DNA of 64,000 nt from NCBI GenBank assembly GCA_963773065.1, contig CAVYZN010000016.1, positions 32,001-96,000 of the forward strand, in the 5' to 3' direction. Shown piece by piece: positions 15,101 through 62,142 of this stretch (its first letter is position 1; every line of letters starts with the position of its first letter). A program made the position numbers and the translations under genes. Origin of the DNA: an uncultured Gammaproteobacteria bacterium. Its GTDB lineage: Bacteria; Pseudomonadota; Gammaproteobacteria; UBA9214. A model generated the notes under the pieces. It saw only the letters and a program-made list of their open reading frames with translations. It searched no databases and was not told the origin of the DNA.

Positions 15101-15287
15101 TTGTCATCTCCGAACCTGATATCATTTGCCGGTATTCACCTGCCACAGTCCTGGTTATCAGGATAGTGACCCTGGAGCGGGAATTCTGTGAACCGGGGCG
15201 GATATTTCCAAACCGGCACGTACGCGGCCTTACGGGAAGATTTTCCTGCTACGATTTACGACTTGTAATTACGTTCAGGTGGAATGT

Positions 15288-15492
15288 AATGCCGGTTGGG
15301 CATGGAAAAATTGATGAGTGCGTCGAGGCCTTGTGTCACAAGGGCTGTAGCATGGTTTATGGGTATATCCGCGCATTGCAGCAGGACGAGGAATTCCCCG
15401 AGGTGGCGGATCTCTCCAAGGCAGAACGCCAGTCAGTACTGGCGCAACTAATAGCCATCATGGATATCTACGACGGCAGTTGTGGCAGTTAA
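15288..15492 (+). CDS. small hypothetical protein (about 67 aa; start approximate)
   Basis: MPVGHGKIDECVEALCHKGC..LIAIMDIYDGSC reads as protein-like and precedes the yjbQ remnant. Confidence 0.5.
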
Positions 15493-15507
15493 AGACGGGT
15501 AAGAGTA

Positions 15508-15737
15508 ATGGTATTTCAGGACAGTTTTATTGTTGCAACCCGCGGACGAGGCACTTATTCGATCACTGCGGCGGTCCAGGAGAGAGTGCCAGATCGGGCG
15601 TGCAAACCGGGCTATGCAATGTATTTATCCACCATACCAGCGCCTCCCTGATTCTCTGCGAAAATGCCGACCCGCAGGTACGTGCTGACCTGGGACGCTA
15701 CATGGAACGGCTGGTCCCGATCGCCTGCAATTGCTAG
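15508..15737 (+). pseudogene. yjbQ: truncated YjbQ (UPF0047) homologue
   Basis: MVFQ..TRGRG then GLCNVFIHHTSASLILCENADPQVRADL; stops at RLVP and the C-terminal half is not visible. Confidence 0.7.
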
Positions 15738-15853
15738 GGCATCCTGCCTCTCGCGACGCTTGCTCATCATTGTAGATCGCCCCTGCTGTCATGCACCACG
15801 GACTGAATGACGAATAAATCAGAGCCTGCTTGTCGAAGTTCTATCCACAGGCA

Positions 15854-16573
15854 TCAGATGCGACACACCGAACGTGCACCAAAAATGATGCTGCCCACGC
15901 GCACCATGGTTGAGCCCTCGGTGACGGCTATTTCGTAGTCCCCGCTCATTCCCATGGACAGTTCGCGGAACATGTCATCGCCAAAACGCGCTGCGCAGGC
16001 ATCGCGCAGTTTGCGAAGTCCAGAAAATGCCAAGTGAGAGCCAGGAATGGAAGACTCACGACGTCCGATCGTCATAAGACCCCGCAGTCTGATGCCGTTA
16101 AGATCTGCCTGCAATAACTCATCCACGAAGGTGTAGACACTCTCCGGCTGCAGACCGAATTTAGCCGGGTCATCTGCGATGTTGATCTGTAACAGGGTAT
16201 TCACCACTACCCCCGAAGCCTCGGCATAGACGGAAAGTTTGTGCGCGAGTTTAAGGCTGTCCAGTGTATGGAGCCATGTAAAATTCCCCGGGATATGTCT
16301 GGCCTTGTTGGTTTGCAGATGACCGATGAAGTGCCATTCGTTTGCCTGATCCCGTATGAGCGGCAGCTTGGTCATGGCATCCTGAACGGTACTTTCCCCA
16401 AAAATATGTTGTCCCGCTTCGATGGCGCGGATGATGTCTGCGGTAGTTATGTATTTTGAAACGGCAATCAGGCGGATTTCATCCGGATTCCGTCCGGCTG
16501 ACATGGCCGCGTTGCGGATGCGTTCCCTGACGGTCTGCAGGTTGGCCTGAATATCGGGTGATGGTCTTGTCAT
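15854..16573 (-). CDS. yggS: PLP homeostasis protein
   Basis: LIAVSK, WHFIGHLQTNK, LRGLMTI, LSMGMSGD, VRVGSIIFG. Confidence 0.95.
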   Translation of the reverse strand: MTRPSPDIQANLQTVRERIRNAAMSAGRNPDEIRLIAVSKYITTADIIRAIEAGQHIFGESTVQDAMTKLPLIRDQANEWHFIGHLQTNKARHIPGNFTWLHTLDSLKLAHKLSVYAEASGVVVNTLLQINIADDPAKFGLQPESVYTFVDELLQADLNGIRLRGLMTIGRRESSIPGSHLAFSGLRKLRDACAARFGDDMFRELSMGMSGDYEIAVTEGSTMVRVGSIIFGARSVCRI

Positions 16574-26511: not shown

Positions 26512-27280
26512 TCAGTTCTTGACCTTGTTCTCGCGGTATTGCATATAGGCATCCCGTACAAACAAATAGGGATCCAGAGCATCCTTCTTGATGGCCTCAT
26601 AGGTATCCTTGTCCAGCGACAGGTCATTGATTTTCTCATAGCCCTTGACCTCCCAGTAAGTCCAGCCCTCAAACAGGTAGTAGAGCAGATTCATGCGTGA
26701 ATCGGCGAAGGTGCCAATGGCATCCCTGACATCCGAGGGTCCCAGTATCGGCAGCACCAGATAGAAACCCGGTCCGATGCCATAGTGTCCCAGCGTCTGG
26801 CCCGTATCCTCATCCTGTTTTCTCAGATTAAAATGGTCCTTGGCCGTATCGAACAGGCCGCCGATCCCGAGTCGTTGTATTGACGAAAAAACGGGTCAAC
26901 TCATTTCCGGCAACCGTGAACTTGCCCTGGAAGCCCGCATTAACAATTCTAACGGGTGATGCCAGGTTGGAAAAAACATTCTGCACGGATACCCGCCAGG
27001 GCTCGGGCACGGCCCACCGGTAACCCCTGGCGACCGGTTTGAAGAGGTAGAAATACAGCTTGTCGTTAAACCAGAAGATGCCGCGATTGAGGGGCTGGAG
27101 CGGGTCGGAAACACTGTATTCCTCTTGCTCCTCATCAAACGGAAACTCGTCTTCTTCATTGTTCTGTGTATCCCCGGCAGCATCGGTCTGCGTCGCTTCA
27201 ATGGCGTCAGACCCGGGGTCCAGACTCGCGGCGGTCGGTGGGTAGGTAAGCACCAGCACAAGGATAAGCAGTTTTTTCAT
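26512..27280 (-). CDS. mlaA: MlaA/VacJ lipoprotein, frameshifted
   Basis: DPLQPLNRGIFWFND, RFFVNTT, LPILGPS.VRD, DPYLFVRDAY.Q.R. Confidence 0.9.
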
Positions 27281-27300
27281 GGTATCCCCTGAAACCATCG

Positions 27301-28680: not shown

Positions 28681-29007
28681 TCATGCTTTTATCCCTTCCT
28701 CGACGGTTGCATACAGGGTGAAAACCGTGTCAAGCCGGGCCAGTTCCAGGACGCGTCGGGTCGGCTCGCTGGCCGCCACCAGGGCAAACCTGCCGCCATT
28801 GCGCTTCGACGCCTGCAGTGCCTCGACCAGCGAGGCGACGCCGGAACTGTCGATGTAGGTCACGCTGGAGAGGTCAACCAGGACCCTGCCGGCGCCATCG
28901 ACGGTTTTCAGCAGGATTTCGCGGGCGGCGGGCGAGCTTTCGAGATCCACGTCGCCTTTCAATACCACGATGGATGCGCCTTGTTTTTTGATAACCTCAT
29001 GTTTCAT
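28681..29007 (-). CDS. STAS anti-anti-sigma factor (RsbV/SpoIIAA-like)
   Basis: LVDLSSVTYIDSSGVASL with the phosphoacceptor Ser. Confidence 0.9.
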   Translation of the reverse strand: MKHEVIKKQGASIVVLKGDVDLESSPAAREILLKTVDGAGRVLVDLSSVTYIDSSGVASLVEALQASKRNGGRFALVAASEPTRRVLELARLDTVFTLYATVEEGIKA

Positions 29008-30763
29008 CTTTGTGTCTCTTGAAGAATTTTACCATCCGCAGCAGATTTCCCTGGCCGGAAGGCGCGGGAAGATACTCCACCCTGTCCATGATGTTGTGAA
29101 TCAGGCACACGCCCAGCCCGCCGGGGTGCACCTCCTTCGGCCACACGGGCTTGACCTTCTCCTGGTCAACCGGAGGGGCCGAGTCTGTCAGGCAAAATTC
29201 CAGTATGCCGTCACGGCACAGGATCTCCAACGTGGCCTCACCATCGGCGACCCCCTTATAGGCGTGGCGGACCACATTCTGGCAGGCCTCCCCGACGGCG
29301 ATGACCAGGTCCTGCGCCAGGGCGGGCGGGCAGCCGCATTTCTCGCAGGTCTCGCGCACCACCTCCCGTACCGGCTGCAGTTCTTCCGCGCGGGCCGGGA
29401 AGGTAAGGCTGACCAGTGGCTCGGCGCAGCGGTTGGCGTCGTCTTTCATCATCTGGCGTGTCGGGTCCTCCACCGCCAGGATGGTGATATCATCATGGCG
29501 TTGTTGTCCGCTGTCCCTGAGCCGCGAGACGACGGATTGAATGCGCGCGGCGGCGGAATCCGCGTTGCACTCGGTGATGATCGCCTTAAAGCCCTGCACG
29601 TCGAGCCGCTGTCCGGTCCTTACCCTGCCTTCGGTGACACCGTCCGTGAATATGTAGAGTGTGCCACCATCGAGATCGATTAGCTCCTCCCGAATACCGT
29701 TCAACCCAGGTTTCAGCGGCATGATACCGAGTGGCGGCACGCTGGCGGGCACCGGGGTGAAGCTTCCGTCGGGGCGATGTATGAGGGGCGGTTCATGGCC
29801 GGCATTGGCCAGTCGCACCCTGCCGGTGGCGGGATCCAGCATTCCGCAAACCATGGTGACAAACATGCCGTGTATGGCCGTCTCGCAGAGTTCCCTGTTG
29901 ATGGTTGCCAGCAGGGCGCCGGGATCATGTAAGGTCTTGCCCATGCAGCGGAACAGGCTGGCCGTTTTGGACATGAGCAGTGCCGCGTCCATGCCCTTGC
30001 CGGAGACGTCCCCCAGACTGAAATAGATGCGGCCGTCTTCCAGTTCGAAGTAGTCGTAGAAATCTCCCGAAACCTCGTAGGCCGGCAGGTTGATCCCACA
30101 TACCGGGAACGGCGCCGGGCGCGCCGCTGGCAGCAGGCTGCGCTGCATTTCGATGGCAAGTTCAATTTCACGGTTGACGCGTTCCTGCTGCACCAGTACC
30201 TCCGCCATGCGGGCATTCCGGACGGCAAGGGCGGCCGCCGCCGTGAGGGTCTGCAGCATCATGAGATCCGTCTCGGAAAACAGGCCGTTTCCCTCCTTTT
30301 TGTTGATGAGTTCGATGGCGCCAAGCCGGATGTTCTGGGTGCTCATGGGTGAACACAGGATGGAACGGGTGTGGAAACCGGTGGTTTCATCGACGAAGTG
30401 AGTAAAGTTCGGATCCGTACTGACATCGCGCACCATGCGGCTGGAATTTTCCCTGACGCATTGTCCCACGATCCCTTCGCTGGCCTTCAAGGTGATGCCG
30501 CGTATATCGACCGGTCCGACGCTGGCCTTGCAGGTCAGCCGCAGGCCATTGTCTTCGAGAAGAAACAGGGAACCCGCCTCGGCGTTGACATACTTGGTGA
30601 TCAGTTCGAGCGCCTTCTGAATGGTGTCCTCGATGTTGAGTGTGACCGCCAGATGGCCGCTCATCTTGGCCAGCAATTCGAGATGCCCGGCCAGCGCCGG
30701 TGACTTGCGCCGATCCAGCCGGTTTGGATCCCTGCGTTCGCCTCCCGGGGGTAAGCTTTTCAT
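28997..30763 (-). CDS. GAF + SpoIIE/PP2C phosphatase + RsbW-like HATPase fusion
   Basis: GAF (TGFHTRSILCSP..ELINK), VSGDFYD..GDVSGKG..NAGH..TDG..DDIT, EACQNVVRHAY..GGLG. Confidence 0.9.
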   Translation of the reverse strand: MKSLPPGGERRDPNRLDRRKSPALAGHLELLAKMSGHLAVTLNIEDTIQKALELITKYVNAEAGSLFLLEDNGLRLTCKASVGPVDIRGITLKASEGIVGQCVRENSSRMVRDVSTDPNFTHFVDETTGFHTRSILCSPMSTQNIRLGAIELINKKEGNGLFSETDLMMLQTLTAAAALAVRNARMAEVLVQQERVNREIELAIEMQRSLLPAARPAPFPVCGINLPAYEVSGDFYDYFELEDGRIYFSLGDVSGKGMDAALLMSKTASLFRCMGKTLHDPGALLATINRELCETAIHGMFVTMVCGMLDPATGRVRLANAGHEPPLIHRPDGSFTPVPASVPPLGIMPLKPGLNGIREELIDLDGGTLYIFTDGVTEGRVRTGQRLDVQGFKAIITECNADSAAARIQSVVSRLRDSGQQRHDDITILAVEDPTRQMMKDDANRCAEPLVSLTFPARAEELQPVREVVRETCEKCGCPPALAQDLVIAVGEACQNVVRHAYKGVADGEATLEILCRDGILEFCLTDSAPPVDQEKVKPVWPKEVHPGGLGVCLIHNIMDRVEYLPAPSGQGNLLRMVKFFKRHKDET

Positions 30764-36969: not shown

Positions 36970-39225
36970 ATGCCAGCCGCCGCCATTCCCGCCGTCCGCA
37001 CCGCCCTGTTCGACTACCCGAAGTACTGGGCCGAGTGCTTTGGCAGCGCCCCGTTTCTGCCCATGAGCCGCGCGGAGATGGATGCCCTGGGCTGGGATTC
37101 CTGCGACATCATCCTCGTCACGGGCGATGCCTACGTCGATCACCCCTCCTTCGGCATGGCCATCATCGGGCGGCTGCTGGAGGCCCAGGGTTTCCGCGTC
37201 GGCATCATCGCCCAGCCGGACTGGCAGTCGAAAGCGGCGTTCGAGGCGCTCGGCCGGCCGAACCTCTTCTTCGGCGTCACCGCCGGCAACATGGATTCCA
37301 TGATCAACCGCTATACCGCGGACCGCAAACCCCGTTCCGACGACGCCTACACCCCCGGCGGGCGGGCGGGCAGTCGCCCGGACCGCTGCTCGCTGGTCGT
37401 ATGCGCAACGCTGCCGGGAGGCGTACCCGGACGTGCCGCTGGTGCTGGGCGGCATCGAGGCCTCGCTGCGGCGCATCGCCCATTACGATTACTGGCAGGA
37501 CAAGGTGCGCCGTTCGCTGCTGGTGGACGCCGGCGCCGACATCCTGCTCTACGGCAATGCCGAGCGGGCCGTGGTGGAACTGGCCCACCGCCTCGCCCGC
37601 GGCGAGGCCATCGCCGACATCACCGACGTGCGCGGCACCGCCTTCATCCGCCGCGACACCCCCGCGGACTGGTGGGAAGTCGATTCCACCCGCATCGACC
37701 GCCCGGGCAGGATCGACGGCGTCATCAACCCCTATATCAACACCCAGGCGATGGATGCCTGCGAACGGGAACGGCGCAACAGCGCCCGCTACGGCTTCGG
37801 CTTCGACGCAGCACGGCGCGCCGCTGATCCCGGCGCCCCAACCGCGACTGGATCGCGCGCGCACCGTGATTCGCCTGCCGTCATTCGAGAAGGTGCGCAA
37901 CGACGCCGTGCTCTACGCCCACGCCAGCCGGGTGCTGCACCTGGAAACCAATCCCGGCAATGCCCGGGCGCTGGTGCAGCAACACGGCGCGGTCGATGTC
38001 TGGCTGAACCCGCCGCCGATTCCGCTCACGACCGAAGAAATGGACTACGTGTTCGGCATGCCGTTCGCGCGCGTGCCCCACCCCCGCTACCGGGGCGAGA
38101 ACATCCCGGCCTGGGAGATGATCCGCTTCTCGGTCAATATCATGCGCGGCTGCTTCGGCGGCTGCACCTTCTGCTCCATCACCGAGCACGAGGGCCGCAT
38201 CATCCAGAACCGTTCGCAGGAGTCGATCCTGCGGGAAATCGAGGACATCCGCGACAAGGTGCCGGGCTTCACCGGCGTCATCTCGGACCTCGGCGGTCCC
38301 ACCGCCAACATGTACCGCATCGCCTGCAAAAGCCGCGACATCGAGGCCGCCTGCCGCAAGCCGAGCTGCGTCTATCCGGGCATCTGCCCGAACCTCGACA
38401 CCGATCATTCCGCGCTCACGCGGCTCTACCGGGAGGCCCGCACGTCTGCCGGGCATTAAAAAGGTCCTGATCGCCTCCGGGCTGCGCTACGACCTGGCGG
38501 TGCGCGACCCGGAGTACGTGAAGGAGCTGGTCACCCACCACGTCGGCGGTTACCTGAAAATCGCGCCGGAACATACCGAGGAAGGTCCGCTGTCGATGAT
38601 GATGAAGCCGGGGGTCGGCGCCTACGATGCCTTCAAGCGGCTGTTCGAGAAATTTTCCGCGGAAGCCGGCAAGGAGCAGTACCTGATCCCGTATTTCATC
38701 GCCGCCCATCCGGGCACCAGCGATGAGGACATGGTGAACCTGGCGCTCTGGCTGAAGCGCAACGGCTTCCGGGCCGACCAGGTGCAGGCGTTCTACCCCT
38801 CGCCGATGGCCACCGCCACGGCCATGTATCACTCGGGCAAGAATCCCCTGCGCCGGGTGCGCTACAAGAGCGAGGGGGTGGATGTCGTCAAGGATGCCGG
38901 GCGGCGCCGGCTGCACAAGGCGTTCCTGCGCTACCACGATCCGCGGCACTGGCCGCTGCTGCGCGAGGCGCTCCTGGCGATGGGACGGGCGGACCTGATC
39001 GGCGGCGGCCCCCACCAGCTCATCCCGCACGAACAGCCGGACGAAGGCAAGGACTACCGGGCGCCGCGCCGCAAGAACTCCGCGCAGGCGCATCAACGGC
39101 GCCTCGAGGGAACGCTGCTGACCCGGCATACCGGTCTGCCGCCCTGGCAGGAGGGCAGCCGTAAAGCCGGTCAAGAGGGGACGGGGAAACGCAGGCGCAA
39201 GCCGTCGGTCGAACGACCGCGCTGA
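36970..39225 (+). CDS. ygiQ: YgiQ-family radical SAM protein, several frameshifts
   Basis: [59 protein letters not shown]. Confidence 0.92.
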
Positions 39226-39275: not shown

Positions 39276-39558
39276 TGTCAAGCAAAGCCGCTGAAGTTAA
39301 TGAATCGATGGGTGAGCGGTTCACGGTGGGTGACCGAGCCATTGGAAGAGACGCAGCCAGTAATAGCGACGGTTGATCATGCTGATATCCGTGGGTTGGT
39401 TACCACCTTACTTGTGTCCGTCGGGTACCTGCCTCGATCTAGGGACGAGCATTTATTTCAGGCTCCTAACGTCTTCGAGGGTTGTACCAACACCGGGGCT
39501 GCGTCTCTTCCAATAGCTCGGGCTTTGTGTCGGGTCTGTATGGTTCGGCGATACCGGG
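39276..39558 (-). ncRNA. candidate bridge/seek RNA in the IS downstream non-coding end
   Basis: 25-nt stem (39334-39358 with 39497-39521, 24/25) enclosing two stem-internal-loop modules; IS1111-type position. Confidence 0.65.
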
Positions 39559-40669
39559 TTACACGGCTGAGTGGTGTTTGTTTGGCGATGGCCCAGATAA
39601 AGGCGGCCATTTCGCGGGCGATGGCGACGGTGACCTGGTTCTGATGTTTGCCCTTGTTCACCAGGGTGCGATAGCGTTTACAGAGTCTGATCTGCGCCTT
39701 CCAGCTGATATCCTGAATCGGCTGGCTGAGCTTTTCGAGTCGCAGCTGCAGGTGTCGGCTGACCTTGGCCGGGTAGCGGTAGGCCCAGGCGCCCTCGACG
39801 AGCGCCTTGCGGGCGTGGGTGTTACCGGTCTTGGTGATGCCGCCCTGACGGCGCTGCCCGCCGCTGGAGTACTCGGAGGGGGTGAGGCCGAGATAGCTCA
39901 TGAGCTGGCGGGGATTATCGAAACGGGTGAGATCGCCGAGTTCGGCGATGAGGGAGACGGCGGTGATGAACTGCACGCCTCTGAGGGCCTGGATGGCCTC
40001 GACCACGGGGAACAGGCGCCAGTTGCGGGTGTGGTCCTGAAGTTCGGCCTCCAGGCGTTGCATCCGTTGATGCGTCGGTAACGCAACGAGGTACTCCTGG
40101 AAGACAATCTGTTGCGCGGGGGTGTCGCAGACGACCTCAGCCAGCCAGCCAGATGGCGGCTCCCCAGTTGGCCTTGCCCTGGTAGCGATATCGTGGCGCA
40201 GCAGAAAGGCCTTCAGGCGGAACTTGGCGGGCTTGAGGTCCGTGAGGGCGTCTTCGCGGGCGCGGGTAAGATCGCGGATGGCCTCGTCGGCGACGTCCGG
40301 GACATAGACGGGGGTGAGGTCGCCGCTGCGCATCAGGCGGGCGAGTTCGATGGCATCGCGGCGGTCGGTCTTGACGCGGTCGCCGGCTTTTTTGGGGATG
40401 AGCGAGGGGGCGATAACCCAGCAGGTAAGTTTTTTCCTGGTCAGGTAGCGATACAGCCAGTAACCACAGGGGCCGGCCTCATAAACGAAGACCAGTCGGG
40501 CGGATTTGGATTTCAGTGTGCGGATCAGTTTATCGATGTCGCACTGGCGGGTACCGATGGTCCCGAGGGCGACAACGGCGGAGTCCCGGTCGTCCGGTGC
40601 ATAGGCGACCGCGATGGATTCCTTGTGGACGTCAAGACCGACGTAGAGTGTGGTGCTAGACTGTTTCAT
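39458..40669 (-). CDS. IS110-family DEDD transposase/recombinase (true stop probably near 39559)
   Basis: [36 protein letters not shown]. Confidence 0.93.
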
Positions 40670-44733: not shown

Positions 44734-47700
44734 ATGCTGCACATCTGCCGTTCCAATCGCGTCGAGTCACTGCTAGAGCGCCTGGCGGACCGGCTCGGCG
44801 AGGAGCCGCTTTCCTCGCCTTTCCTGCCCGAGGTGGTGGTGACGCCGAGCCCCGCTATGGCGCGCTGGGTCAATCTGCAACTCGCCGGCCGGCACGGGGT
44901 GGCGGCCAATTACCGCTATCCGCTGCCGGCCGCGTTCATCTGGCAGCTCGCGCGCGATCTGCTCGGCGATCTGCCCGATACCGACCCGCTCGCGAGCGAT
45001 GTCATGACCTGGAAGGTCTACGCGCTGCTGCCTGAACTGATTGAGGAGCCGGCCTTTGAATCCATCGCTCACTACCTGCAGCAGGATGCCGGTGGCCTGA
45101 AGCGTTTCCAGCTCGCCGGCCGGATCGCGGACGTCTTCGACCGTTACCAGTTCTACCGGCCGCAGCTGTTGCGTGACTGGGGTGCCGGCAAGGACGGACA
45201 GTGGCAGGCGGTGTTGTGGCGCCGGTTGACCCGCGGGATCACCCAGCACCGCCTCGCCGTCATCGCGCGCCTGCTGTCGCGCCTCCAGAAAAGAAGGGAA
45301 AAGGGGTCAGAGCCCTTTTCTGAACAGAGTGGCCTGACTGGTAATTTTATTTCGCCTGAAGAAAAGGGGTCTGACCCCTTTTTGCCGGAGCGCGTCAGCC
45401 TGTTCGCCATCTCCAGTCTGCCGCCGCTGTTCGTCGAGGTGCTGCACGCGCTCGCCGCGCATACCCGCATCGACCTCTACCTGCACAGTCCGACCGACCA
45501 GTTCTGGGCGGACCTGGTATCCCAGAAGACGCTGGCGCGCAAGCGTCTGGCTGAGCCCGAGGCCGCCGAGCTGTGGGAAACGGGTAACAGCCTGCTGGCC
45601 TCCTGGGGCCGCCAGGGGCAGGCCCTGCAGGATCTGTTGCTGATGCAGGAAACCCCGGCCACCGAGGAGGATGCCTTCAGCGCGCCCGAGACGGAGTCGC
45701 TGCTTGCGCATCTGCAGCGGGACATCTACACCCTGCGGCCCATGGCGGCCCCCGGCGAGCGGATGGCCGTCGAACCCGACGCTTCGCTGCAGGTGCATGT
45801 GTGTCACAGTCCGCAGCGGGAATGCCAGGTGCTGCACGATGGCCTGCTGGCGATGCTGGACGGCGACCCGGCACTGCGTCCCGAGGACATGCTGGTCATG
45901 GTGCCGGAGATCAGCCTCTATGCCCCCTACATCGAGGCCGTGTTCGAACAGGATGCGGAATCCGACCGGCCGTTCATTCCCTGGAACCTGTCGGATATCT
46001 CGCTGCGCGACGAGCATCCGCTGGTGCGGGTGTTCCTGCAGTTGCTGGACCTGCCGCACAGCCGTTTCAGCCACACGGAAATCCTGTCCTGCCTCGACGT
46101 GCCGGAGCTGGCCGGACGGTTCGGGCTGGACGGCGAGGCGCTGGCGCAGATCCGGGAATGGCTGGCAGAGGCCAGGCTGCGCTGGGGATTGAGCGGTGCG
46201 CACAAGCGGCAGTTCGGCCTGCCCGGCACGGAGGAGAACACCTGGGCGCAGGTCGAACGACGCCTGTTCGGCGGCTACGCCCTGGGCGAGGGCGAGCTGT
46301 TCGAAGACATCGCCCCGATTGCCGGCGTGGATGGCGCCCGGGGCGAAATCCTCGGCCGGTTCTGGCGGCTGCTGTCCTGTCTCATCGAGTATGCCGAGCG
46401 GCTGCGCCGCCCGCGCCGCGCCGGCGAGTGGCAGGAATGTCTGGGCCGCCTGCTCGATGATTTCTTCGGTGAACAGGAGGACGAGGAGGGCAGGATCCAG
46501 AAAATCCGCGATGCCCTGGCGGATCTGGCCGGACAGGCCGGCGGCCTGGACGAGACCCTGCCCGTTGCCCTGGTGCGTCACTGGCTGGAGCGGCAACTGG
46601 GCACGCAGACCCGTCACGGACGCTATTTCAGCGGCGGCGTGACCTTCTGCGGCATGCGCCCCATGCGCAGCCTGCCCTTCAAGGTGATCTGTGTGCTGGG
46701 ACTGCATGACCAGGCATTTCCGCGCCGCGAGCAGCCGGCCGAGTTCGACCTGATGCGCGAGCACTGGCGTCCCGGCGACCCGCGCAAGGGGGCCGAAGAC
46801 CGCTACCTGTTCCTGGAAACGCTGCTGTGCGCGCGGCAGGTCCTCTACCTCAGCTACGTCGGGCGCGACATCCGCAACAACAGCGAGCGCCAGCCCTCGG
46901 TGCTGCTGCGGGAACTGCTGGATTATATCGACCAGCAGTACGTGGATGCCGGTGGCGATGCCGGGGACCAGGCTCAGTGCGCGGCTGACGCGCGTGCATC
47001 CGCTGCAGCCCTTCAGTCGCGCGCAATTACCGCGGCGAGCCGCGCAGCTACGACGGCGACTGGTGTGCGGTGGCGCAGGCGATGCGGCAGCCGCTGCGGC
47101 CCGAACCGGCGGGCGCGGACTGGAACCGCACCCGGTTGCCCGCCGCCCCGGACACCCTGCGCACCGTCAGCCTCACGCAATTGCTGCGCTTCGTGCGCCA
47201 TCCGGTCAGGTACTTCGTGAATACGCGCCTGCAGGTCTACCTGCGGGAGGAGGCGCCGGGTGAAGATGACGAGGTGTTCAGCGCTGGATGCGCTGCAGAG
47301 CTTCAGCCTGAAACAGCGCCTGGTGGATGATTACCTCAAGGGACGGCCGACTCCCGCGCGGCAACTCAGTGCCGAGGGCATCCTGCCGCACGGGGCCTTC
47401 GCCGGTCTCGCCTGGCAGCAGGAGTCACTGAAAGTGCAGCCACTGACGCAGCGGCTCGCGGCCTACCGGGCGCACCCGCCGGAGCAACGGCTGGTCGACC
47501 TGCCATTCGAGAACGAGGCCGCGGGATCGCTCCGACTCGCGGGGCAGATCAAGGGCATTTACCCGGGGCCCGGTCTGCTGCGCTACCGGCCGGGTGCCCT
47601 CAAGGGGCCGGACATCCTGGCGCTGTGGCTGGAACACCTGGCCTGGTGCGCCGGTGATGGCGGCCGGCGACAAATGCAGCACCCTGCACGGGACGACCGG

Positions 47701-48044
47701 GCAGTTCACCCTCACGCAGAGCCTTGACCCGGCCGAGGCGCGGGCGCACCTCGCCCGCTACCTGCAGTGGTACCGGGAGGGGCTGCACCGGCCGCTGCCG
47801 TTGCTGCCCGGCGCGAGCCATGCGTGGATGCGCGCGAGTCAGGGCGGCCGGGCCGACCCGCTCAACGCCGCGCTCGCCGCCTGGAACGGCAACGAATTCA
47901 CCGGTATCCCCGGCGACAAGGACGATGCCTATATCGAACTGGTGATGCGCGGCGTCGCGGGGAACCCGATCGACCAGCCGGAGTTCGCGGAACTGGCGGC
48001 AGGCGTTCTACGCCGACGCGCTGGCCGCAGGAGAGCTGTCATGA
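44734..48044 (+). CDS. recC: exodeoxyribonuclease V gamma subunit, several frameshifts
   Basis: SNRVESL, DVFDRYQFYRP, LLASWG..G, HVCHSPQRE, PMRSLPFKVICVLG, DRYLFLE. Confidence 0.95.
45298..45382. repeat. palindromic REP-like doublet inside the recC reading frame
   Basis: gaaaaggggtcagagcccttttc and gaaaaggggtctgacccctttt are inverted copies differing at one base. Confidence 0.85.
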
Positions 48045-51000
48045 GTTTCCAGATGCTCGATCCGCCGGCGGTACTCGCATTCCCCCTGACCGGCATGCGG
48101 CTGATCGAGGCGAGCGCCGGGACCGGCAAGACCTACACCATCGCCAATCTCTACCTGCGCCATATCGTGGAAGGGCGCGATGTCGCCGAGGTGCTGGTGG
48201 TGACTTTCACGGTGGCCGCCACCGATGAGCTGCGCGGGCGCATCCGCGCGCGCCTGTTCGAGACCCTGGCACTGCTGGAACACGAGGCGGACACGGACGA
48301 CAGTTTCCTGGCCGGACTGGCCGTCCGGCTCAAGGAACAGGGCCTCGCGGAACAAACCGTCAAGCGCCTGCGGCTCGCGGTGCGCGCCATGGACGAGGCC
48401 GCTATCTACACCATCCACGGCTTCTGCCAGCGCACCCTGAGCGAATTCGCCTTCAACAGCGGCCAGCAGTTTCAGCTTGAGGTGCTGGCCGACGACGGCG
48501 ATTTGTGGCGCCGGGCCATTCAGGACTGGTGGCGCAAGACCGGTTATCCTCTTGATGCGGTGCAGGCCCGCCTGTTCCGCGACAGCCTGGGAGACCTCGA
48601 CGCGTTCGAGGCGCTGGTCAAGCCGCTGCTCGGTGTGCAGCACAAGCGGTTGCTGCCCGAGGTGGAAAACTGGGATCAGTTGCTCACCCGCTGGGATGCG
48701 CTCGCCGTCGAGCTGGATGCACTGGCCGACCACTGGCGAGGGGATGGCGCCTCGCTGCAGCAGATATTGCGCGAATCGAAGGGGCTCAGCCGTGCCCAGT
48801 CAAGTCCCTATCAGTCGGACCGGATCGATCAGGCGCTTGCCCTCCTCGACGACTACTTCGCCGAGGCGGAACGCATGCCGCCGCCGGATGCCTTCGAAGT
48901 GCTGACGCCGCAGTGCCTGCGGCGGTTTGCGTTGAAGAAGGCCGATCCGGCGCTCGAGCGAGGGTTTTTCCTGCGCTGCGGTGAGGTATGGGGAAGGTCT
49001 GCGCGCGCTGAAACGCGACCTGCGCGCCGCCGCCCTGACAGAAGCCGCGGCCTTCGCGCGCGAGCAGGTCAGGCAGGCCAAATTCACGGCCCAGGTGCTC
49101 TCCTACGACGATTTGCTCGCCGAGATGTACCGGGCGCTGCAGAGCGGCAACGGCGCGGCTCTGGCGGAGTCGGTGTGCACGCGTTTTCCGGTGGCGATGA
49201 TCGACGAGTTTCAGGATACCGACCCGGTGCAGTACGGCATCTTCCGCGAACTCTACCGCGGCCGGCTGGACTGCGGCCTGATCCTGATCGGCGACCCCAA
49301 GCAGGCCATCTACAGTTTCCGCGGCGGCGATATCTTCACCTACATGCAGGCCAAGCAGGACGTGGGCGCGGACAGCGTCTACACCCTGAACATCAACTGG
49401 CGCTCGACGCCGGAGGTGCTGAACGCAGTTAACGCCTTCTTCAGGCAGCGTGAGAGGGATGCCTTCGTTTATGGAGAAACCATTCCGTTTATCGGCACCC
49501 ACGCGGCGGACAAGTCGCATCGCTATCTGCAAAGGGACGGTGAGCGGCAAGCCGCGCTGCAACTCTGGTTGCTGCCCGAGGGCCGCAACGCGAAAGGCGA
49601 GGCGAAACCGCTCTCGAAAGAGGAGGCGAGCGGGCTGAGCCATGACGCCGTGGCGCAGGAGATCACGCGGCTCATCGCCGAGGGCAGAGCCGGGACGGCG
49701 CGGCTCGGCGACCGGGCGCTCTGTCCCCGCGATATCGCGGTGCTGGTGCGTACCTCCTTACGAGGCCTCGGGTCTGCGCCGGGTGCTCTCGGAACATGGC
49801 GTCAATGCCGTCTCCGTCGGGCGCGAGGGCGTGTTCAATACCCCGGAGGCGGCGGCTCTGGAGGTGCTGCTCCAGGCCGTGCTCGCCCCGCGCGAGCGGG
49901 AACTCGCGCGCCTGGCGCTGACCTCCGCGCTGCTCGCCCTGGACTACGCGCAGATCGAGCGCATCCTCCAGAGCGAAGCGCAGTGGGTGGACTGGGTGGA
50001 TCAATTGCGGCTGTTGCACCAGGTCTGGCAGCGCAAGGGATTCATGTCGATGTTCCAGCAGATGCTGCGTCGCCTGGGTATCGCCGAGGCGCTCGGCCGG
50101 GGCGAACAGGCCGAGCGCCGCCTGACCAATCTGCTGCATCTGGGCGAGTTGCTGCAGCAGGCTTCCAAGGCTCACCCGGGCATGGACGCGTTGCTGGGAT
50201 GGTATCGGGAGCAGCGCGACCGCGGCGCGGCGGAAGAATCCGAACTGCGTCTGGAAAGCGATGAGGAGCTGGTGCAGATCGTCACCATCCATGCCAGCAA
50301 GGGGCTGGAGTATCCGGTGGTCTTCGTACCCTACCTGTGGGGCTGCAAACCGCGCGCACTGAACGGCTTGCTGGGGTTTCACCGCGGCAACGAGGCGTGT
50401 CTGGATGCCGGGTCCGACGCCATCGAGGAGCATCTCCTCCTCGCCGAGCAGGAACGCCTGGCCGAGGACGTGCGCCTGGCCTATGTGGCGCTGACCCGCG
50501 CGGAGGCCGCCCTCTATCTGGTGTGGGGGCGGGCCGGATCCAGAGACGGTTCCGCCGGCCAGACCGCGCTGGCCTGGCTGCTGCACCCGCACCAGGCGCG
50601 GGAACGGCTGGCCGCGGAGCGCCCGGACGCGTTTGCCGGCCTGGCGGACCTGGAGCCGGACCTGCACCGGCTGGCGGAGCGGGCGCGGGGCGACATCGTC
50701 GTTACCCCGCTGCCGCAGTCCGTGGCGGAGACCGTGGCGCCGCCGGCCGGAGAAGCCGGAAGCGCTGGCGCCCCGGCGCTTCACCGGTCACATCGCCACC
50801 GACTGGCGGATCAACAGCTTTTCCGCCCTGACACGGGATGTCCATTCCGGTCCGGCGATTCCGCGTGCCGGCGCGGCGGATGACCCGGCGCTGCAATTTC
50901 CGGCGGGCAGCCATGTCGGCTCCTATCTCCACTTGCTGCTCGAATGCCTGGATTTCCGGGGCGATGTCGAACGGCAGGTGCTGCAGCACAGCGCGCAGGT

Positions 51001-57345: not shown

Positions 57346-57741
57346 GGGCATGAGGGAAATGCGCGGGGCCGGTGACCGCCACGCGGGTTCGAACGGGAAC
57401 GCGATACCACCTCATGGCATCGAAGGAAAGCCGGCTTCATTCGGCCCATGCCATACCCGCGCAAGCGGGACAACCCCTCAGTAGCTTTGAGCAGCCGCAG
57501 ATAGGCTCGCACCGCGAATACTCAGAGTAGTTCGCGCACATCCCGCGCAAGATCAGTATTGTTTCGTCGCACCGGCGGGTCATAGCTGGAAATTCCACGC
57601 CAATGGGCTAATCTGACAGTTGTCTCTCGTGCGGTGACCACGGCCATACCCATGGTGCGAACGGCAACCGTGAACAGGCTCGATTGGCGGGAGACAGTCC
57701 GGGAATTACCTGCTACTGACTAACGTTCATGGAGAAGACTT

Positions 57742-58011
57742 ATGATGATGACACGCAAGAAAATGACGGGCCTGCTGCTGGCTACAACCGCCGCCGCGCT
57801 GTTTAGCACCGCGAACATCACGGCAGCCGCAGAGGAAACCGCGAAAAGCGCGGAGGTGAAGTGCATGGGCATCAATTCCTGCAAGGGTACTTCCGAGTGC
57901 GCGAGCGCAACCAATTCCTGCAAGGGACATAATAGCTGCAAGGGCCAGGGTTGGGTGCACGCGAGCAAGGAGGACTGCACCGCCAAGGGCGGCAGCGTAA
58001 TCGAAAAGTAA
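57742..58011 (+). CDS. Cys-rich RiPP precursor with signal peptide (bufferin BufA-like)
   Basis: signal peptide then [32 protein letters not shown]; upstream of DUF692. Confidence 0.88.
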
Positions 58012-58024
58012 TACCGCTACAAAT

Positions 58025-58055
58025 GCCAGGGCGCCGTCCGGCTCCCTGGCGTTTT
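58025..58055 (+). terminator. hairpin after the precursor gene
   Basis: gccagggcgccg-tc-cggctccctggc followed by gtttt. Confidence 0.6.
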
Positions 58056-58199
58056 CAACCAACGGTGTACCAACGACATAATCGGGCCGGTCGCACCGGA
58101 GCGCAGGCGCGGCGGAGCGGATCAGCGTTGCCGCTGCCTGCCGGCCGGCGCTACCATGTCCATCAGTACCCCGCACCCGCGCGGCGTACCATCAGGAAC

Positions 58200-59075
58200 A
58201 TGATGGCGAAGTCAGAGCAAGGCCAAACCCGATTCCCGGATCTCGGCTTCGGGCTGGGTTTGCGCACGCAGCACTATCAGGAAATCCTGGACAGCGCTCC
58301 GCCCGTGGACTGGTTCGAGGCGCTGACGGAGAACTATCTCGTCCCCGGCGGCAAACCGCTCCATTATCTGGAGCAGGTCCGCGCCCGTTATCCGCTCGTT
58401 CTGCACGGGGTATCCCTGTCCATCGGCAGTTCCGATCCCCTCAATTGGGACTATCTGCGGCAGCTCAAGGCGCTGGCGGCCCGCATCGAGCCGATCTGGA
58501 TCTCCGATCATTTGTGTTGGACGGGGCTTAACGGGCGCAACCTGCATGATCTCCTGCCCTTGCCCTACACGGAGGAGGCCGTGCTCCACGTGAGCGATCG
58601 CATCCGGGCGGTGCAGGATTTCCTCGGCCGCCGCCTGCTGATCGAGAACGTATCGAGTTACCTCACCTATACCGATTCCTGCATGAGCGAGTGGGAGTTC
58701 CTGAGCGCGGTCGCCGGGCGCGCCGACTGCCTGATACTGCTCGACATCAACAACATCTACGTCAGCAGTTTCAACCATGAATTCGATCCGCTGGAGTACC
58801 TGCGGGGAGTACCCGTGGAGCGGGTACAGCAGTTCCACATCGCCGGGCATCGCAATCACGGCGACTATATCGTCGATACGCACGACGAACCGGTGATCGA
58901 TCCGGTGTGGCGACTGTACGCCGACGCCTGCCGGCGCTTCGGACCGGTGTCCACCATGATCGAACGGGATGACAACATCCCCCCGCTCGCGCAATTGCTG
59001 GAGGAGCTCGATCGGGCGCGCCGCATCGCGGCCGGCATGGCCGTGCAGGCTCCGGAACGGGCAGGCGCCACATGA
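58200..59075 (+). CDS. DUF692 multinuclear non-heme iron oxidase (MNIO)
   Basis: [57 protein letters not shown]. Confidence 0.95.
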
Positions 59076-59860
59076 GCAGCGGCAGTCTGCGCGAGCTGCA
59101 GGAACAGTTCCAGTCCCATCTGCTGCATGGCGATCCCCGCGTGCAGGATCGCATCATCGGCACACCCCGGGTGGACGCGCACACGCGGCTCGCGATCTAT
59201 GGCGATGCCTATCGCCTGCGATTGCTGGAGGCATTGAGGACTGACTTTCCCGCGCTGCATACGCTCGCGGGTGACGCGGAATTCGAACGCATCGGGCGCG
59301 CGTACATCGACGCCCATCCCTCCGGGCACTTCTCGATCCGTTATTTCGGCCGCCGGCTCGGCGAGTTCTTGCGGCGGGACGAGCGCTGCCGGCGGATCCC
59401 GGTGTTTGCGGAGATGGCCGATTTCGAGTGGGCCTTGGGTTTGTCCTTCGATGCCCCCGACAGCGGGGTGATCGGCGTGGAGGACGTCGCCGCGATTCCA
59501 GCCGCGGCGTGGGCCGGGATGCGCATCGGCCTGCATCCCTCGCTGCAGCGGCTGGATCTGATCTGGAACGTGCCCGGACTCTGGAATGCGATTGATGAGG
59601 AGCAGCCGCCACAGGCGCCGGTCGCCGCCGACTGCCCGCTTGCCTGGATCATCTGGCGCCGGGAATTGCGCACGCTTTTCCGTTCCCTGCCGGTGGATGA
59701 AGCCTGGGCGATCGATTTCCTGGGGCAAGGACACGGCTTCGCGGAGATGTGCGAAGGGTTGTGCGAGTGGGTCGACGCGGCAGTGGCGGGAGCGCAGGCG
59801 GCGCTGTTCATGCGCCGCTGGGTGCAGGACGGACTCATCGCCCGCATCGATCTGGATTAA
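59072..59860 (+). CDS. DUF2063-family MNIO partner protein
   Basis: RLAIY..AY..RL..AL..DFP; MADFEWA; overlaps the DUF692 stop. Confidence 0.88.
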
Positions 59861-59908
59861 CCCGGATTATTAACCGCCAAGCCAGGATAACAGGGTACCG
59901 CTGTTGCC

Positions 59909-60526
59909 ATGTGGACGTGGTCGCTCAACTGGGGAGAAGTCTCGCCGCACATCGTGGTGGGAACCTGTCCGATGGCGCCGGAGGATGTCGGGCGCATCCA
60001 GGCGGGGGCGGGGGTATCCGCCGTCCTGTCCCTGCAGCATGACGACTGTCTGGCGTACTGGGGCATCGACTATGACGCCATGCACAACCAGGGATCGCGG
60101 CTCGGTCTCACCATGAGACGGTGCCCGCTCCGTGATTTCGACATCCCGAACCAGCGTGAGCGGCTGCCGCATGCCGTTGCGGCGCTGACCCGCCTGCGCT
60201 CGGAGGGACACCGCATCTACGTGCATTGCACCGCGGGTTTGGGTCGGGCGCCACTGACGGTATTGGCTTACCTCACCTGGGTGGAGGGTCAGCCGCCCGA
60301 GTGCGCGATACGCACGATTCATAACGCGCGGCCAGGCGCGGTGCCCGCCTGGGAGGCTTATCATGGGTGCCGCGCAGACCTCGTCGCGAGATACCGTTCG
60401 ATGATCGAGCGGCGGGCCTATGAACTGCATGAAAAAGGCGGCCCAAGAACCGCGCTCGATAACTGGGTCGATGCCGAAACCGGGGTCATCCGATCCGCGC
60501 TCATGGAATTATCCCTGCTCGGATAA
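59909..60526 (+). CDS. dual-specificity phosphatase, LSF2/SEX4-like, with DUF2934-like tail
   Basis: YVHCTAGLGRAP active loop, RDFD acid loop, LSLQ..D..YWGID; tail IERRAYEL.E.GG..ALDNW..AE. Confidence 0.85.
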   Translation: MWTWSLNWGEVSPHIVVGTCPMAPEDVGRIQAGAGVSAVLSLQHDDCLAYWGIDYDAMHNQGSRLGLTMRRCPLRDFDIPNQRERLPHAVAALTRLRSEGHRIYVHCTAGLGRAPLTVLAYLTWVEGQPPECAIRTIHNARPGAVPAWEAYHGCRADLVARYRSMIERRAYELHEKGGPRTALDNWVDAETGVIRSALMELSLLG

Positions 60527-60537
60527 CAGGCTAAAGC

Positions 60538-62142
60538 TCATTGAAACAGGGATTTCAATTTGTCCAGGGTCCGCTTTGAGACATCTGAAACTGCGTTGGT
60601 GCTCTCGAGTTCCAACAGGCGTTTGTTGTCCGGATCAACCGCCAGTCCCCGATCTCGATAGACTTGCGCCTTGCCGTAATGGAACTGGTCGAGCTCCCGT
60701 TGCGCCAGGTCGGCGTAGCGATCGGCGATCTGCGCCACGCCCGTTAACGCCTCCTCGTTATCGGGATCCTCTGCCAGGATCCTCTGGTAATAGTAATACG
60801 CGTTGTTCATTTCCGGTGTGGTGAGACGGTAGTCATCCAGCGCCTGCCTGGCCAGCAACAAGTCATTCTCACGTTGCAGTGTCAGGTCATCGCTCAGGCG
60901 CAGCACAACCTTTTGTGTTGTTGCCTTACCAGCCGGCAAACTCACGGTTTGCTCTTCCTCCGTCATCATCAACGGTTCTGAGATGAACAATTTTAAGGTG
61001 ACAGTCAACAATAGCAACATCACCGCGCCGGTTAGCGCCCAGCGGATGCGGACGTGGTCAGCAAGGATTTCCTGCAACTTCCGGAATGCGACTCGCGACC
61101 GGTGACCGAGCTGGTAAACAGTATCCGCACCGGCTCTGTCGTGATCTATCGGCAATCGTTCCCTGCGTTGTCCTACTTCCACGGTAACTGCTCCCTGCGT
61201 TACCCTACCTCCTACATCCCTGTAGTCGTGCATTTTTGCAGTCATACGAGCGGCGATCCTGGCGGCGATGACTTTTATCCGCGCCCATGGCCTGGAATTG
61301 CGCAGGTCCCGGACAGCACCGGCTACTGCCGCTGCAGCGACGCCCCGCGGCCGGTGCTGCCGAAGCTCCCGGATGATCCCGACCATTTCCCCGGCGGTGG
61401 CGTAGCGGTCGTCAGGCGCTTTCGCGACCATCCGTTCGATCAACTCCTGATAACGGCTCAGCTCCGCCGGCAAAGCGGGACAAGGCCTGGTCAGGTGGGC
61501 CATGATGGTTTCGATCGGAGAGTCGCCCTGAAATGGCTTAACGCCCGTCAGCATCTCATAGAGAATGATGCCGAGCCCGTAGATGTCGGCGCGCCCGTCC
61601 AATGGTTTGCATTCGGCCTGTTCCGGGCTGAGGTAATACGGGCTGCCCAGCGCGGTGCTGTCCAGCGTCAGCCGGATGTCATTCTCCAGGTGCTTGGCGA
61701 TCCCGAAATCGGTGAGTACCGGGGTCCCGTCCTTGCGAAACAGGATGTTCGCCGGCTTGATGTCGCGGTGAATGATGTCTCTGCGGTGCAGGAAATCCAG
61801 GCAGCCGCCGATGATCTCCGCCAGCTCGAGCGCCGCCTCGATGTTCATGCCCTTGCTGATCCGCTTCTCCAGGTCGCCATCCTCGAGGTATTCCATGGAT
61901 ATGTAGTGCCGCTCGCCGACGACGCCGATATCGTGGATGGTGATGATGTTGCGGTGATTGAGCGAGGCGATGATCCGGCCCTCGTTGCGGAACCGGGTGG
62001 ACTGCAGGGGGTTATCGATATTCTTCAGCAGTTTGAGGGCGACCTGCCGCTCCAGGGATTCCTGTATGGCCAGGTGCACGGATGCCATGCCGCCATCGGC
62101 GATGGGTCGTATGATTTTGTAGCCGGGTATCTGCAGATCCAT
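60538..62142 (-). CDS. Hanks-type Ser/Thr protein kinase with TM and TPR-like C-terminus
   Basis: GGMASV, VALK, HRDIKPAN, TDFGIA, GSPYYLSPEQ. Confidence 0.93.
   Translation of the reverse strand: MDLQIPGYKIIRPIADGGMASVHLAIQESLERQVALKLLKNIDNPLQSTRFRNEGRIIASLNHRNIITIHDIGVVGERHYISMEYLEDGDLEKRISKGMNIEAALELAEIIGGCLDFLHRRDIIHRDIKPANILFRKDGTPVLTDFGIAKHLENDIRLTLDSTALGSPYYLSPEQAECKPLDGRADIYGLGIILYEMLTGVKPFQGDSPIETIMAHLTRPCPALPAELSRYQELIERMVAKAPDDRYATAGEMVGIIRELRQHRPRGVAAAAVAGAVRDLRNSRPWARIKVIAARIAARMTAKMHDYRDVGGRVTQGAVTVEVGQRRERLPIDHDRAGADTVYQLGHRSRVAFRKLQEILADHVRIRWALTGAVMLLLLTVTLKLFISEPLMMTEEEQTVSLPAGKATTQKVVLRLSDDLTLQRENDLLLARQALDDYRLTTPEMNNAYYYYQRILAEDPDNEEALTGVAQIADRYADLAQRELDQFHYGKAQVYRDRGLAVDPDNKRLLELESTNAVSDVSKRTLDKLKSLFQ

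Follow-up and report, generated by a model that had tools for sequence, protein, structure and literature searches.

A bacterial protein family related to the plant phosphoglucan phosphatases SEX4, LSF1 and LSF2

A phosphatase gene was analyzed in a stretch of 64,000 nucleotides (hereafter the window) from an uncultured gammaproteobacterium of the UBA9214 lineage (assembly GCA_963773065.1, contig CAVYZN010000016.1, positions 32,001 to 96,000 of the forward strand). The encoded protein, called the window protein below, belongs to a large, uncharacterized bacterial family whose members begin MWxWxLNW, and its nearest characterized relatives are the plant phosphoglucan phosphatases SEX4, LSF1 and LSF2. 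The gene lies between a bufferin-type ribosomal peptide cluster directly upstream (57742–59860, plus strand) and a convergent kinase gene. Coordinates of the gene, of its coding motifs and of its neighbors are listed in Table 1.

Table 1. The phosphatase gene, its motifs and the adjacent genes
Feature	Positions	Strand	Remarks
Phosphatase gene	59909..60526	+	ATG start; complete open reading frame (ORF) of 205 codons (205 amino acids)
N-terminal aromatic motif MWTWSLNW (residues 1–8)	59909..59932	+	Signature of the bacterial family; plant enzymes have ...YxYHH.LG.xY there
Variable loop LQHDDCLAYWGID (residues 42–54)	60032..60070	+	Y50 and W51 align with LSF2 Y135 and W136
D-loop RDFD (residues 75–78)	60131..60142	+	D76, presumed general acid (LSF2 D161); F77 corresponds to F162
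Catalytic phosphate-binding loop HCTAGLGRAP (residues 106–115)	60224..60253	+	C107, presumed nucleophile; R113, presumed to bind phosphate
C-terminal three-helix region (residues 148–204)	60350..60520	+	DUF2934-like RAYEL...W..AE; at the position of the LSF2 C-terminal (CT) motif
BufA2 precursor	57742–58011	+	NF050166, 93.7 bits (cut-off 60); not recognized by Pfam
BufB MNIO maturase (DUF692)	~58236–59075	+	NF050167, 388.5 bits (cut-off 310); Pfam MbnB_TglH_ChrH, 6e-113
DUF2063 protein	59072–59860	+	PF09836, 73.5 bits (cut-off 27.2)
Hanks-type Ser/Thr kinase, 534 amino acids, with C-terminal extension	60538–62142	-	Convergent; 11 bases between stop codons

The phosphatase and its bacterial family

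An earlier interpretation of this locus made from the letters alone (the sequence-only reading) had named five motifs in the ORF, and all five were found in it: from N to C terminus, VGTCPMAPEDV (residues 17–27), LSLQHDDCLAYWGID (residues 40–54), RDFD (residues 75–78), HCTAGLGRAP (residues 106–115) and AYLTW (residues 120–124). Their colinearity with the plant enzymes was confirmed, although they had been listed in an order that differs from that of the sequence. The HCX5R loop, H106-C107-T-A-G-L-G-R113, is present, with Cys and Arg invariant in all groups compared, and D76, which aligns with LSF2 D161 and lies about 30 residues before the loop, is invariant in 244 of 244 aligned rows. The general-acid role of this Asp is described in PMC5779698. 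The gene is intact and its catalytic set (C107, R113 and D76) complete.

In Pfam, the window protein matched DSPc (PF00782) at 39.8 bits (curated cut-off 33.5), while no NCBIfam model fitted it (sole match 27 bits, cut-off 505). The 205 amino acids include neither a signal peptide nor a membrane segment. The protein, predicted to be cytoplasmic, is a member of the cysteine-based protein tyrosine phosphatase (PTP) superfamily with the dual-specificity phosphatase (DSP) fold.

A word-indexed protein search yielded 600 proteins at E ≤ 1e-5 among 1257 candidates, and the best 120 of the 600 were taken as the closest homologues; they are 181–244 amino acids long, 57–94% identical to the window protein and, where named, called 'dual specificity protein phosphatase family protein' or 'hypothetical protein'. 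One homologue of 205 amino acids (P0001) is 94% identical over the full length. M1 is kept in 104 of the 120 and W2, W4 and W8 in 111 each, the remaining nine being shorter at the N terminus; the ATG start is thus supported by relatives, which share M1 and the MW.W.LNW beginning. An exhaustive search of cluster representatives returned 1854 proteins at E ≤ 1e-3, of which 490 reached E ≤ 1e-10 and 69 reached E ≤ 1e-30.

Genomes, one per species, were scanned with the single peptide pattern [VTI]Y[VL]HCTAG[ILM], giving 194 stretches, of which 186 code for relatives. The best 80 of the 186, ranked by similarity, are referred to as loci (L001 onward). By record title, these comprise Candidatus Competibacteraceae (18), Rhodospirillales (12, including 2 Defluviicoccus), Chromatiales in the NCBI sense (7), Desulfobacterales/Desulfobulbales (7), Actinomycetota (3), Planctomycetaceae (2) and one each of Gemmatimonadota, Kiritimatiellota, Eiseniibacteriota, Methylococcaceae, Acidiferrobacterales and Thiohalobacteraceae; the other 25 are Proteobacteria without a finer class or have a title without a phylum. 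Cultured carriers of relatives are Halochromatium glycolicum DSM 11080 and Thioalkalivibrio denitrificans ALJD (loci L050 and L051). Competibacteraceae and Defluviicoccus are known as glycogen-accumulating organisms, and the frequency of the family in such lineages is suggestive but weak, because it involves one or two lineages, a narrow search pattern, a ranking by similarity and a variant of the protein that lacks the hallmarks described below. A tblastn search against plasmids gave one distant match and one against phages gave none, and the phosphatase had no match in PADLOC.

Kinship with the plant enzymes, active-site residues and phylogeny

The window protein was compared by phmmer with 177,635 sequences of solved structures, 107 of which matched at E ≤ 1. 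LSF2 (E = 1e-26 and 2.5e-25), SEX4 (1.1e-22) and LSF1 (1.6e-17) ranked first and were followed, after a gap, by an engineered archaeal-type phosphatase (3.7e-10, the best generic match), laforin (1e-8) and then ordinary protein phosphatases. BLASTP gave 42% identity over 120 residues to P0258, which is taken as an LSF2 orthologue because it scores 1.8e-78 against 4KYQ, and 32% over 161 residues to the Vitis 'phosphoglucan phosphatase DSP4' (SEX4/DSP4; P0272). When a profile of 30 family members (A1) was compared with one of ten LSF2-clade sequences (A2) by hhalign, the probability was 100 and E was 2.3e-46 over 192 columns, with query residues 5–204 aligned to LSF2 93–284 and the alignment extending through the LSF2 CT motif.

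An AlphaFold2 model built from A1 (pLDDT 97.1, pTM 0.92) accommodates all 205 residues in one phosphatase domain plus three C-terminal helices (residues 148–161, 163–175 and 182–204). Foldseek searches of the Protein Data Bank with this model gave 236 matches at E ≤ 0.001, PTP/DSP-fold phosphatases throughout among the matches listed. LSF2 was at the top (E about 5e-16, TM score 0.79, 197–206 columns), SEX4 had E about 1e-13 with a root-mean-square deviation of 1.5–1.6 over 156–157 columns, and ranks 1–7 were occupied by LSF2, SEX4 and laforin, the last at ranks 6, 7 and 9 (rank 9 being the laforin phosphatase domain). Because LSF2, SEX4 and laforin are ranked first, the nearest structural relatives are the three known kinds of glucan phosphatase. 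The proposed homology to SEX4 and LSF2 is upheld by the phmmer, hhalign and Foldseek comparisons alike, and so is the more specific proposal that the protein is kin to SEX4, LSF1 and LSF2 and not to generic protein or lipid DSPs, the next generic phosphatase appearing only at 3.7e-10.

The C-terminal region carries a conserved RAYEL...(D)W..AE..V.R motif in A1. The DUF2934-like module that had been proposed there is below threshold in the window protein itself, where PF11154 scored 13.5 bits (E = 0.058, residues 165–190, curated cut-off 22 bits), and above the cut-off in one relative, P0122 (25.7 bits); P0001, P0105 and L036 scored 15.0–15.3 bits and P0180 21.6 bits, and PF11154 matches were precomputed for 4 of the 120 closest homologues. 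Because hhalign aligns this region with the LSF2 CT motif and because the Foldseek alignment with LSF2 is some 40 columns longer than the one with SEX4, the module is read as the probable counterpart of the LSF2 CT motif. Pfam found phosphatase-domain families and the weak C-terminal match but no carbohydrate-binding module (CBM), and the model has a single domain, in agreement with the earlier statement that a CBM is lacking as in LSF2.

Both as a sequence and as a fold, the best match is LSF2 (4KYQ/4KYR), a single domain with a helical tail and no CBM. Its catalytic loop reads HCSAGLGRAP in Arabidopsis and HCTAG[LM]GR in 10 LSF2 orthologue rows, against HCTAGLGRAP in the window protein. Unlike LSF2, a plant chloroplast enzyme, the window protein has no transit peptide, begins with MWTWSLNW where LSF2 has ...PYEYHH.LG, carries the DUF2934-like motif in its tail and has C20 and C47 in place of Q and D. 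SEX4 (DSP4; 3NME/4PYH) shares the loop HCTAG[LM]GRAP, but has a CBM48 after the phosphatase domain and Phe at the position of W51 (8 of 8 rows). Laforin (4RKK/4R30), from animals and protists, matches in fold and acts on glycogen, the polymer that bacteria store, but scores only 1e-8 by sequence, has an N-terminal CBM20 and represents a different lineage of the fold; it is given as absent from prokaryotes in PMC13666283 and PMC2714694.

A separate observation concerns P0124 (648 amino acids), in which the phosphatase domain and CBM48 of a SEX4-type unit occur twice in tandem with nearly identical halves.

Glucan phosphatases have the loop signature C-(hydrophilic)-A-G-(aliphatic)-G-R. The CxAG-hydrophobic-GR loop noted by the sequence-only reading is present as C-T-A-G-L-G-R and is kept in the protein's own subfamily, and the form C-T-A-G-[LM]-G-R is shared with all 10 LSF2 and all 8 SEX4 rows. 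Lists of functional LSF2 residues were taken second-hand from PMC5779698 and PMC12892837 and mapped through the phmmer alignment. The aromatic channel of LSF2 consists of Y83, Y85, Y135, W136 and F162, with C193 as the catalytic Cys (PMC5779698), and W136 and G230 set its C3 specificity (PMC12892837). In the window protein, Y135 corresponds to Y50, W136 to W51, D161 to D76, F162 to F77, C193 to C107 and G230 to A144, with V145 at the position of the SEX4 Phe. D76 and C107 are present in all 120 closest homologues; the frequencies at five other positions are given in Table 2. The small residues A144 and V145 at the G230 position, taken with W51, point more to an LSF2-like (C3-type) active site than to a SEX4-like one.

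Table 2. Residues at loop and channel positions (numbering of the window protein), by group of aligned sequences
Position	Closest homologues (120)	Other bacterial-type (52)	Eukaryote-like clade (42)	LSF2 (10)	SEX4 (8)
50	Y 112	Y 13	A 41	Y 10	Y 7
51	W 117	W 12	L 35	W 10	F 8
77	F 117	F 46	F 42	F 10	F 8
111	L 100, M 18	I 28, L 11, V 8	I 42	L 9, M 1	L 8
112	G 118	G 21, N 29	N 42	G 10	G 8

The LSF2-like hallmarks are thus a property of the window's own subfamily and not of the whole bacterial family. Elsewhere in it a variant with HCTAG[IL]NR and no Tyr-Trp pair was seen, in L042, L054 and L059 (Competibacteraceae), L036 (Defluviicoccus), L038, L041, L055 and L075; examples pair CLEKLEID with HCTAGINR and CRAAFGID with HCTAGLNR. 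Asn at this loop position presumably resembles that of the RNA 5'-phosphatases of the same fold.

For phylogenetic analysis, rows were required to cover at least 135 query residues with a match starting at or before residue 15, which kept 216 of 277 domain rows; the 120 close homologues were thinned to 15, and 19 named loci and the window protein were added. A quick tree (140 rows, 208 columns, support by SH-like approximate likelihood ratio test, SH-aLRT) contained a plant-type clade of 20 rows (SH-aLRT 96) with LSF1-like, SEX4 and LSF2 rows. The LSF1-like rows, labelled by architecture alone, are two proteins of about 600 amino acids in which a CBM48 follows the phosphatase domain; the SEX4 rows also carry CBM48. 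Ten short proteins (the 'bridge' group) adjoin the plant clade (89), and the window protein falls in a group of 106 rows together with all named bacterial loci and a clade of 42 long proteins.

A careful tree (87 rows, 201 columns, ultrafast bootstrap/SH-aLRT) omitted 53 of the 140 rows, most of them close homologues or long proteins (29 of the 42). It contained a plant clade of 19 rows (96/96) without the window protein, that clade together with the bridge group (29 rows, 95/90), a bacterial clade of 13 rows with the window protein (99/98), the long-protein clade (13 rows, 100/96) and the last joined by two bacterial-type neighbor rows (15 rows, 80/85); the backbone has no resolution. The window protein's clade includes proteins from Halochromatium, Thiodiazotropha, Methylococcaceae, Desulfobacterales, Planctomycetaceae, Gemmatimonadota, Kiritimatiellae and an Olavius symbiont. 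No trust can be placed in the root, since the single outgroup, a phosphatase from a Deinococcus deserti plasmid, has a branch of 4.2 changes per column and joins the unresolved backbone. In neither tree does the window protein fall inside the SEX4/LSF2 clade, the plant clade (96/96) shutting it out; orthology to LSF2 or SEX4 is ruled out by the trees, and on the alignments used the protein is assigned to a bacterial sister family. The bridge group is bacterial according to an Atlas lead only (score 0.95, Pseudomonadota), and its member P0180 matches LSF2 and SEX4 first and laforin next. The bacterial rows around the plant clade would agree with descent of the plant enzymes from bacteria, without showing it.

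The long proteins form a eukaryote-like clade of 42 rows, 300–600 amino acids in length (P0143, P0149, P0152, P0157, P0159, P0171, P0186 and 35 others), which nests among bacterial rows in both trees. Like the window protein, its members have the W.W.LNW start, the phosphatase domain and the DUF2934-like tail, and they are 36–44% identical to it, with matches covering query residues 2–197. They differ in having transit-peptide-like N-terminal extensions and long low-complexity or coiled-coil-like C-terminal extensions; P0186 ends in a CP12 domain. The nearest Atlas clusters are in Chlorophyta (scores 0.82–0.84, to be read as a lead only), and the clade may reflect gene transfer between bacteria and algae.

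Candidate functions and genomic context

The single most likely function of the window protein is that of a bacterial phosphoglucan (phospho-alpha-glucan) phosphatase, a reading held tentatively, at a probability of about 0.4. A phosphorylated glucan is proposed as the substrate because of the LSF2-like architecture, the C-terminal tail, the catalytic loop, the Tyr-Trp pair and the D-loop Phe; in addition to the LSF2 loop and the three channel residues, the subfamily retains an aromatic-rich N terminus. By homology, C107 of the HCTAGLGR loop would attack the phosphate ester, R113 would hold the phosphate and D76 of the RDFD loop would protonate the leaving group. The substrate would be phosphate monoesters on glycogen, and their removal would let phosphorylase and debranching enzyme complete glycogen degradation. 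OsttaDSP of Ostreococcus tauri, which has no CBM and conserves the channel but not the LSF2 surface sites, dephosphorylates amylopectin (PMC5779698). By analogy it may serve as a precedent that channel residues alone can suffice, although it is a eukaryotic, plastid-targeted enzyme of the LSF2 clade, likened here to the window protein by its published description.

Several observations weigh against this reading. The aromatic channel that had been proposed holds for Y50, W51 and F77, but LSF2 Y83 and Y85 have no secure counterpart: MAFFT pairs W2 with an invariant plant Tyr only across a gap, and the phmmer and hhalign alignments begin only at residues 5–6. The window protein has no CBM, and the surface glucan-binding sites described in PMC5779698 have no sequence signature. 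Much of the bacterial family has neither the second loop glycine nor the Tyr-Trp pair, and the eukaryote-like clade has the loop HCTAGINR and no Tyr-Trp pair in 42 of 42 rows. Both features are also missing from the Competibacter, Contendobacter and Defluviicoccus proteins, and the link to glycogen accumulators therefore concerns the hallmark-less variant. Generic Pfam families were matched above their cut-offs, Tc-R-P (PF22785) at 36.6 bits (cut-off 27) and PTP-SAK at 28.0 bits (cut-off 27). Tc-R-P is a polymorphic-toxin profile, yet the protein is a stand-alone 205 residues without delivery or repeat domains, and the profile does not discriminate because plant LSF2 and SEX4 rows match it too. 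Finally, no glucan-phosphorylating enzyme is known in prokaryotes according to PMC13666283.

Genomic context adds to these points. A glucan dikinase and glg genes had been suggested as companions to look for; no glycogen or starch gene and no PPDK_N dikinase domain was found in the 69 window ORFs scanned, and no such link recurs across the 80 loci. For the comparison, 1015 ORFs from the 80 loci and the window were clustered by all-against-all BLASTP, and 385 representatives were scanned with Pfam; they comprise a single ORF from each cluster with lengths of 280 amino acids or more, plus immediate neighbors of at least 100 amino acids. No neighbor family occurred in more than 8 of the 81 sources, and no glgA/B/C/P/X-type cluster was found among the 385 representatives. 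A GH13 gene lies immediately downstream of the phosphatase on the same strand in L002, a GH13 fragment is adjacent in L068, and a GH57 gene lies about 3 kb off in L052; its ORF cluster has a member in L054, which probably encodes GH57 as well. Enzymes of alpha-glucan metabolism thus stand near the gene in 3–4 of 80 loci, which is about the chance level by a rough estimate that assumes some 10 such genes per genome of 4000 genes and some 12 genes per locus. The designations 'phosphoglucan phosphatase' and 'reversible glycogen phosphorylation' are accordingly kept provisional, because the protein falls outside the plant clade, its channel is partial, the hallmarks are limited to a subfamily and context offers no link.

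One locus, L016, in a gammaproteobacterial metagenome-assembled genome, contains an ORF of 1043 amino acids (12781–15909, minus strand) about 4 kb from the phosphatase gene. It has a C-terminal PPDK_N domain (residues 678–1015, 6.6e-27), a weak phosphohistidine-domain match (residues 550–589, E = 0.0011) and an N-terminal hydrophobic segment, and its domain order is that of plant glucan, water dikinases and not of phosphoenolpyruvate synthase. As a dikinase partner it was rejected as a coincidence, in view of negative tblastn searches in the other 80 sources and the N-terminal hydrophobic segment.

The kinase gene that ends 11 bases from the phosphatase stop codon on the other strand bears on a second reading, in which the window protein would be a protein phosphatase of bacterial signaling, acting on phospho-Tyr, phospho-Ser or phospho-Thr and, for example, reversing the adjacent Hanks-type kinase. 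The dual-specificity fold and the DSPc match fit this function, and archaeal and human protein phosphatases are among the weaker sequence and fold matches, but in phmmer such enzymes score at least 16 orders of magnitude below LSF2 and SEX4, and a conserved aromatic variable loop is a trait of glucan phosphatases and not of protein phosphatases (PMC5779698). The kinase adjacency is particular to the window, since no Pkinase domain was found among the 385 neighbor representatives from the 80 loci; L001, the closest named relative, shares the upstream genes without the kinase. Protein dephosphorylation is therefore considered a somewhat unlikely function. The kinase domain itself also matches the PADLOC models PD-T4-6 (2e-73) and MAD6, as any such kinase domain may.

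The upstream cluster suggests another possibility, that the phosphatase is an accessory gene co-transcribed with the bufferin genes and acting on the bufferin system. It begins 48 bases past the DUF2063 gene on the same strand, no promoter-like site was detected in 57400–60800 by a scan that covers one promoter type, the order DUF692, DUF2063, phosphatase recurs in L001, and a predicted protein of 464 amino acids (P0121) fuses DUF2063 to the phosphatase. Set against this, a DUF692 neighbor was found only in the window and L001 of the 81 sources (bufferin genes beside the phosphatase are, by implication, also on the P0121 contig), the remaining relatives lie in unrelated contexts, and bufferins are periplasmic according to the NCBIfam model name, whereas the phosphatase has no export signal; the promoter result is weakened by the single promoter type. 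An accessory role in the bufferin system is thus highly improbable. Two terminator-like sites were predicted, on the other strand and no more than in shuffled sequence. Context supports none of the glycogen, kinase-partner and bufferin readings, and the gene behaves as a stand-alone gene.

The absence of a glycogen gene context would fit a non-protein substrate of another kind, such as a phospholipid head group (the substrate type of PTPMT1), a phospho-sugar, a different phospho-polysaccharide or the 5' end of a nucleic acid. Many non-protein substrates are used by enzymes related in fold (PMC6056723), PTPMT1 is at Foldseek rank 8 (E = 1.6e-9, TM score 0.58), Rhodopirellula has been reported to possess a bacterial enzyme of the PTPMT1 type (PMC3576122), and the variation of the loop by branch (HCTAGINR or HCTAGLGR) suggests substrate diversification. 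By sequence, however, PTPMT1 (3RGO) reaches only E = 6.3e-4, far behind LSF2 at 1e-26, and the subfamily has the loop and channel residues of LSF2 and SEX4 and those of no other family. Such a substrate is possible, but on this evidence rather doubtful.

Phosphoglucan dephosphorylation, the favored function, would be of wider consequence. Starch turnover in plants depends centrally on reversible glucan phosphorylation, the failure of which causes Lafora disease in humans. To our knowledge, removal of phosphate from glycogen is not known in bacteria. The window gene is a testable candidate for this step, and if the reading is true it implies a so-far unrecognized glucan-phosphorylating activity in prokaryotes. 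Enzymes of this kind are, as the sequence-only reading stated, usually described as eukaryotic, the literature calling them absent from bacteria (PMC2714694 and PMC13666283). A 2009 survey reported laforin and SEX4 absent from bacteria and archaea and considered a bacterial glucan phosphatase unlikely, but it counted only proteins in which a CBM accompanies the phosphatase domain (PMC2714694), a criterion by which CBM-less proteins such as LSF2 or the window protein would be missed. A 2026 review likewise notes that prokaryotes lack laforin, and gives the phosphate of Escherichia coli glycogen as low but measurable (PMC13666283). No description of a bacterial SEX4/LSF2-like family was found in the full-text literature searched, most subscription journals lying outside its scope, and DUF2934 had only passing mentions there. 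What is new is that bacteria have a branch kin to the plant phosphoglucan phosphatases, without a CBM and with a tail of the DUF2934-like kind. The family bears on the origin of the plant starch phosphatases; the compound proposal that bacteria dephosphorylate glycogen by an LSF2-like enzyme and that SEX4, LSF1 and LSF2 descend from the bacterial radiation is, taken as a whole, unlikely. If the substrate is not a glucan, the family still represents a large uncharacterized branch of the phosphatase fold with a new substrate.

Other genes of the window

Genes that appear broken or truncated were noted at 26515–27298 (minus strand), 44734–50880 (plus), 15480–15737 (plus), 37035–38459 (plus) and 39461–40669 (minus). 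Within this set, MlaA is split into two ORFs; the RecC/RecB region is in three ORFs, a C-terminal piece of RecC opening the RecB-like ORF; a UPF0047 ORF spans only positions 12–54 of the 117 profile positions; and a radical-SAM ORF matches just the end of its N-terminal domain. An IS110-family transposase is located nearby. A partner-switching pair is encoded at 28684–30763 (minus strand), where a protein of 588 amino acids with GAF, SpoIIE (PP2C-type) and HATPase_c_2 domains stands beside a STAS protein of 108 amino acids.

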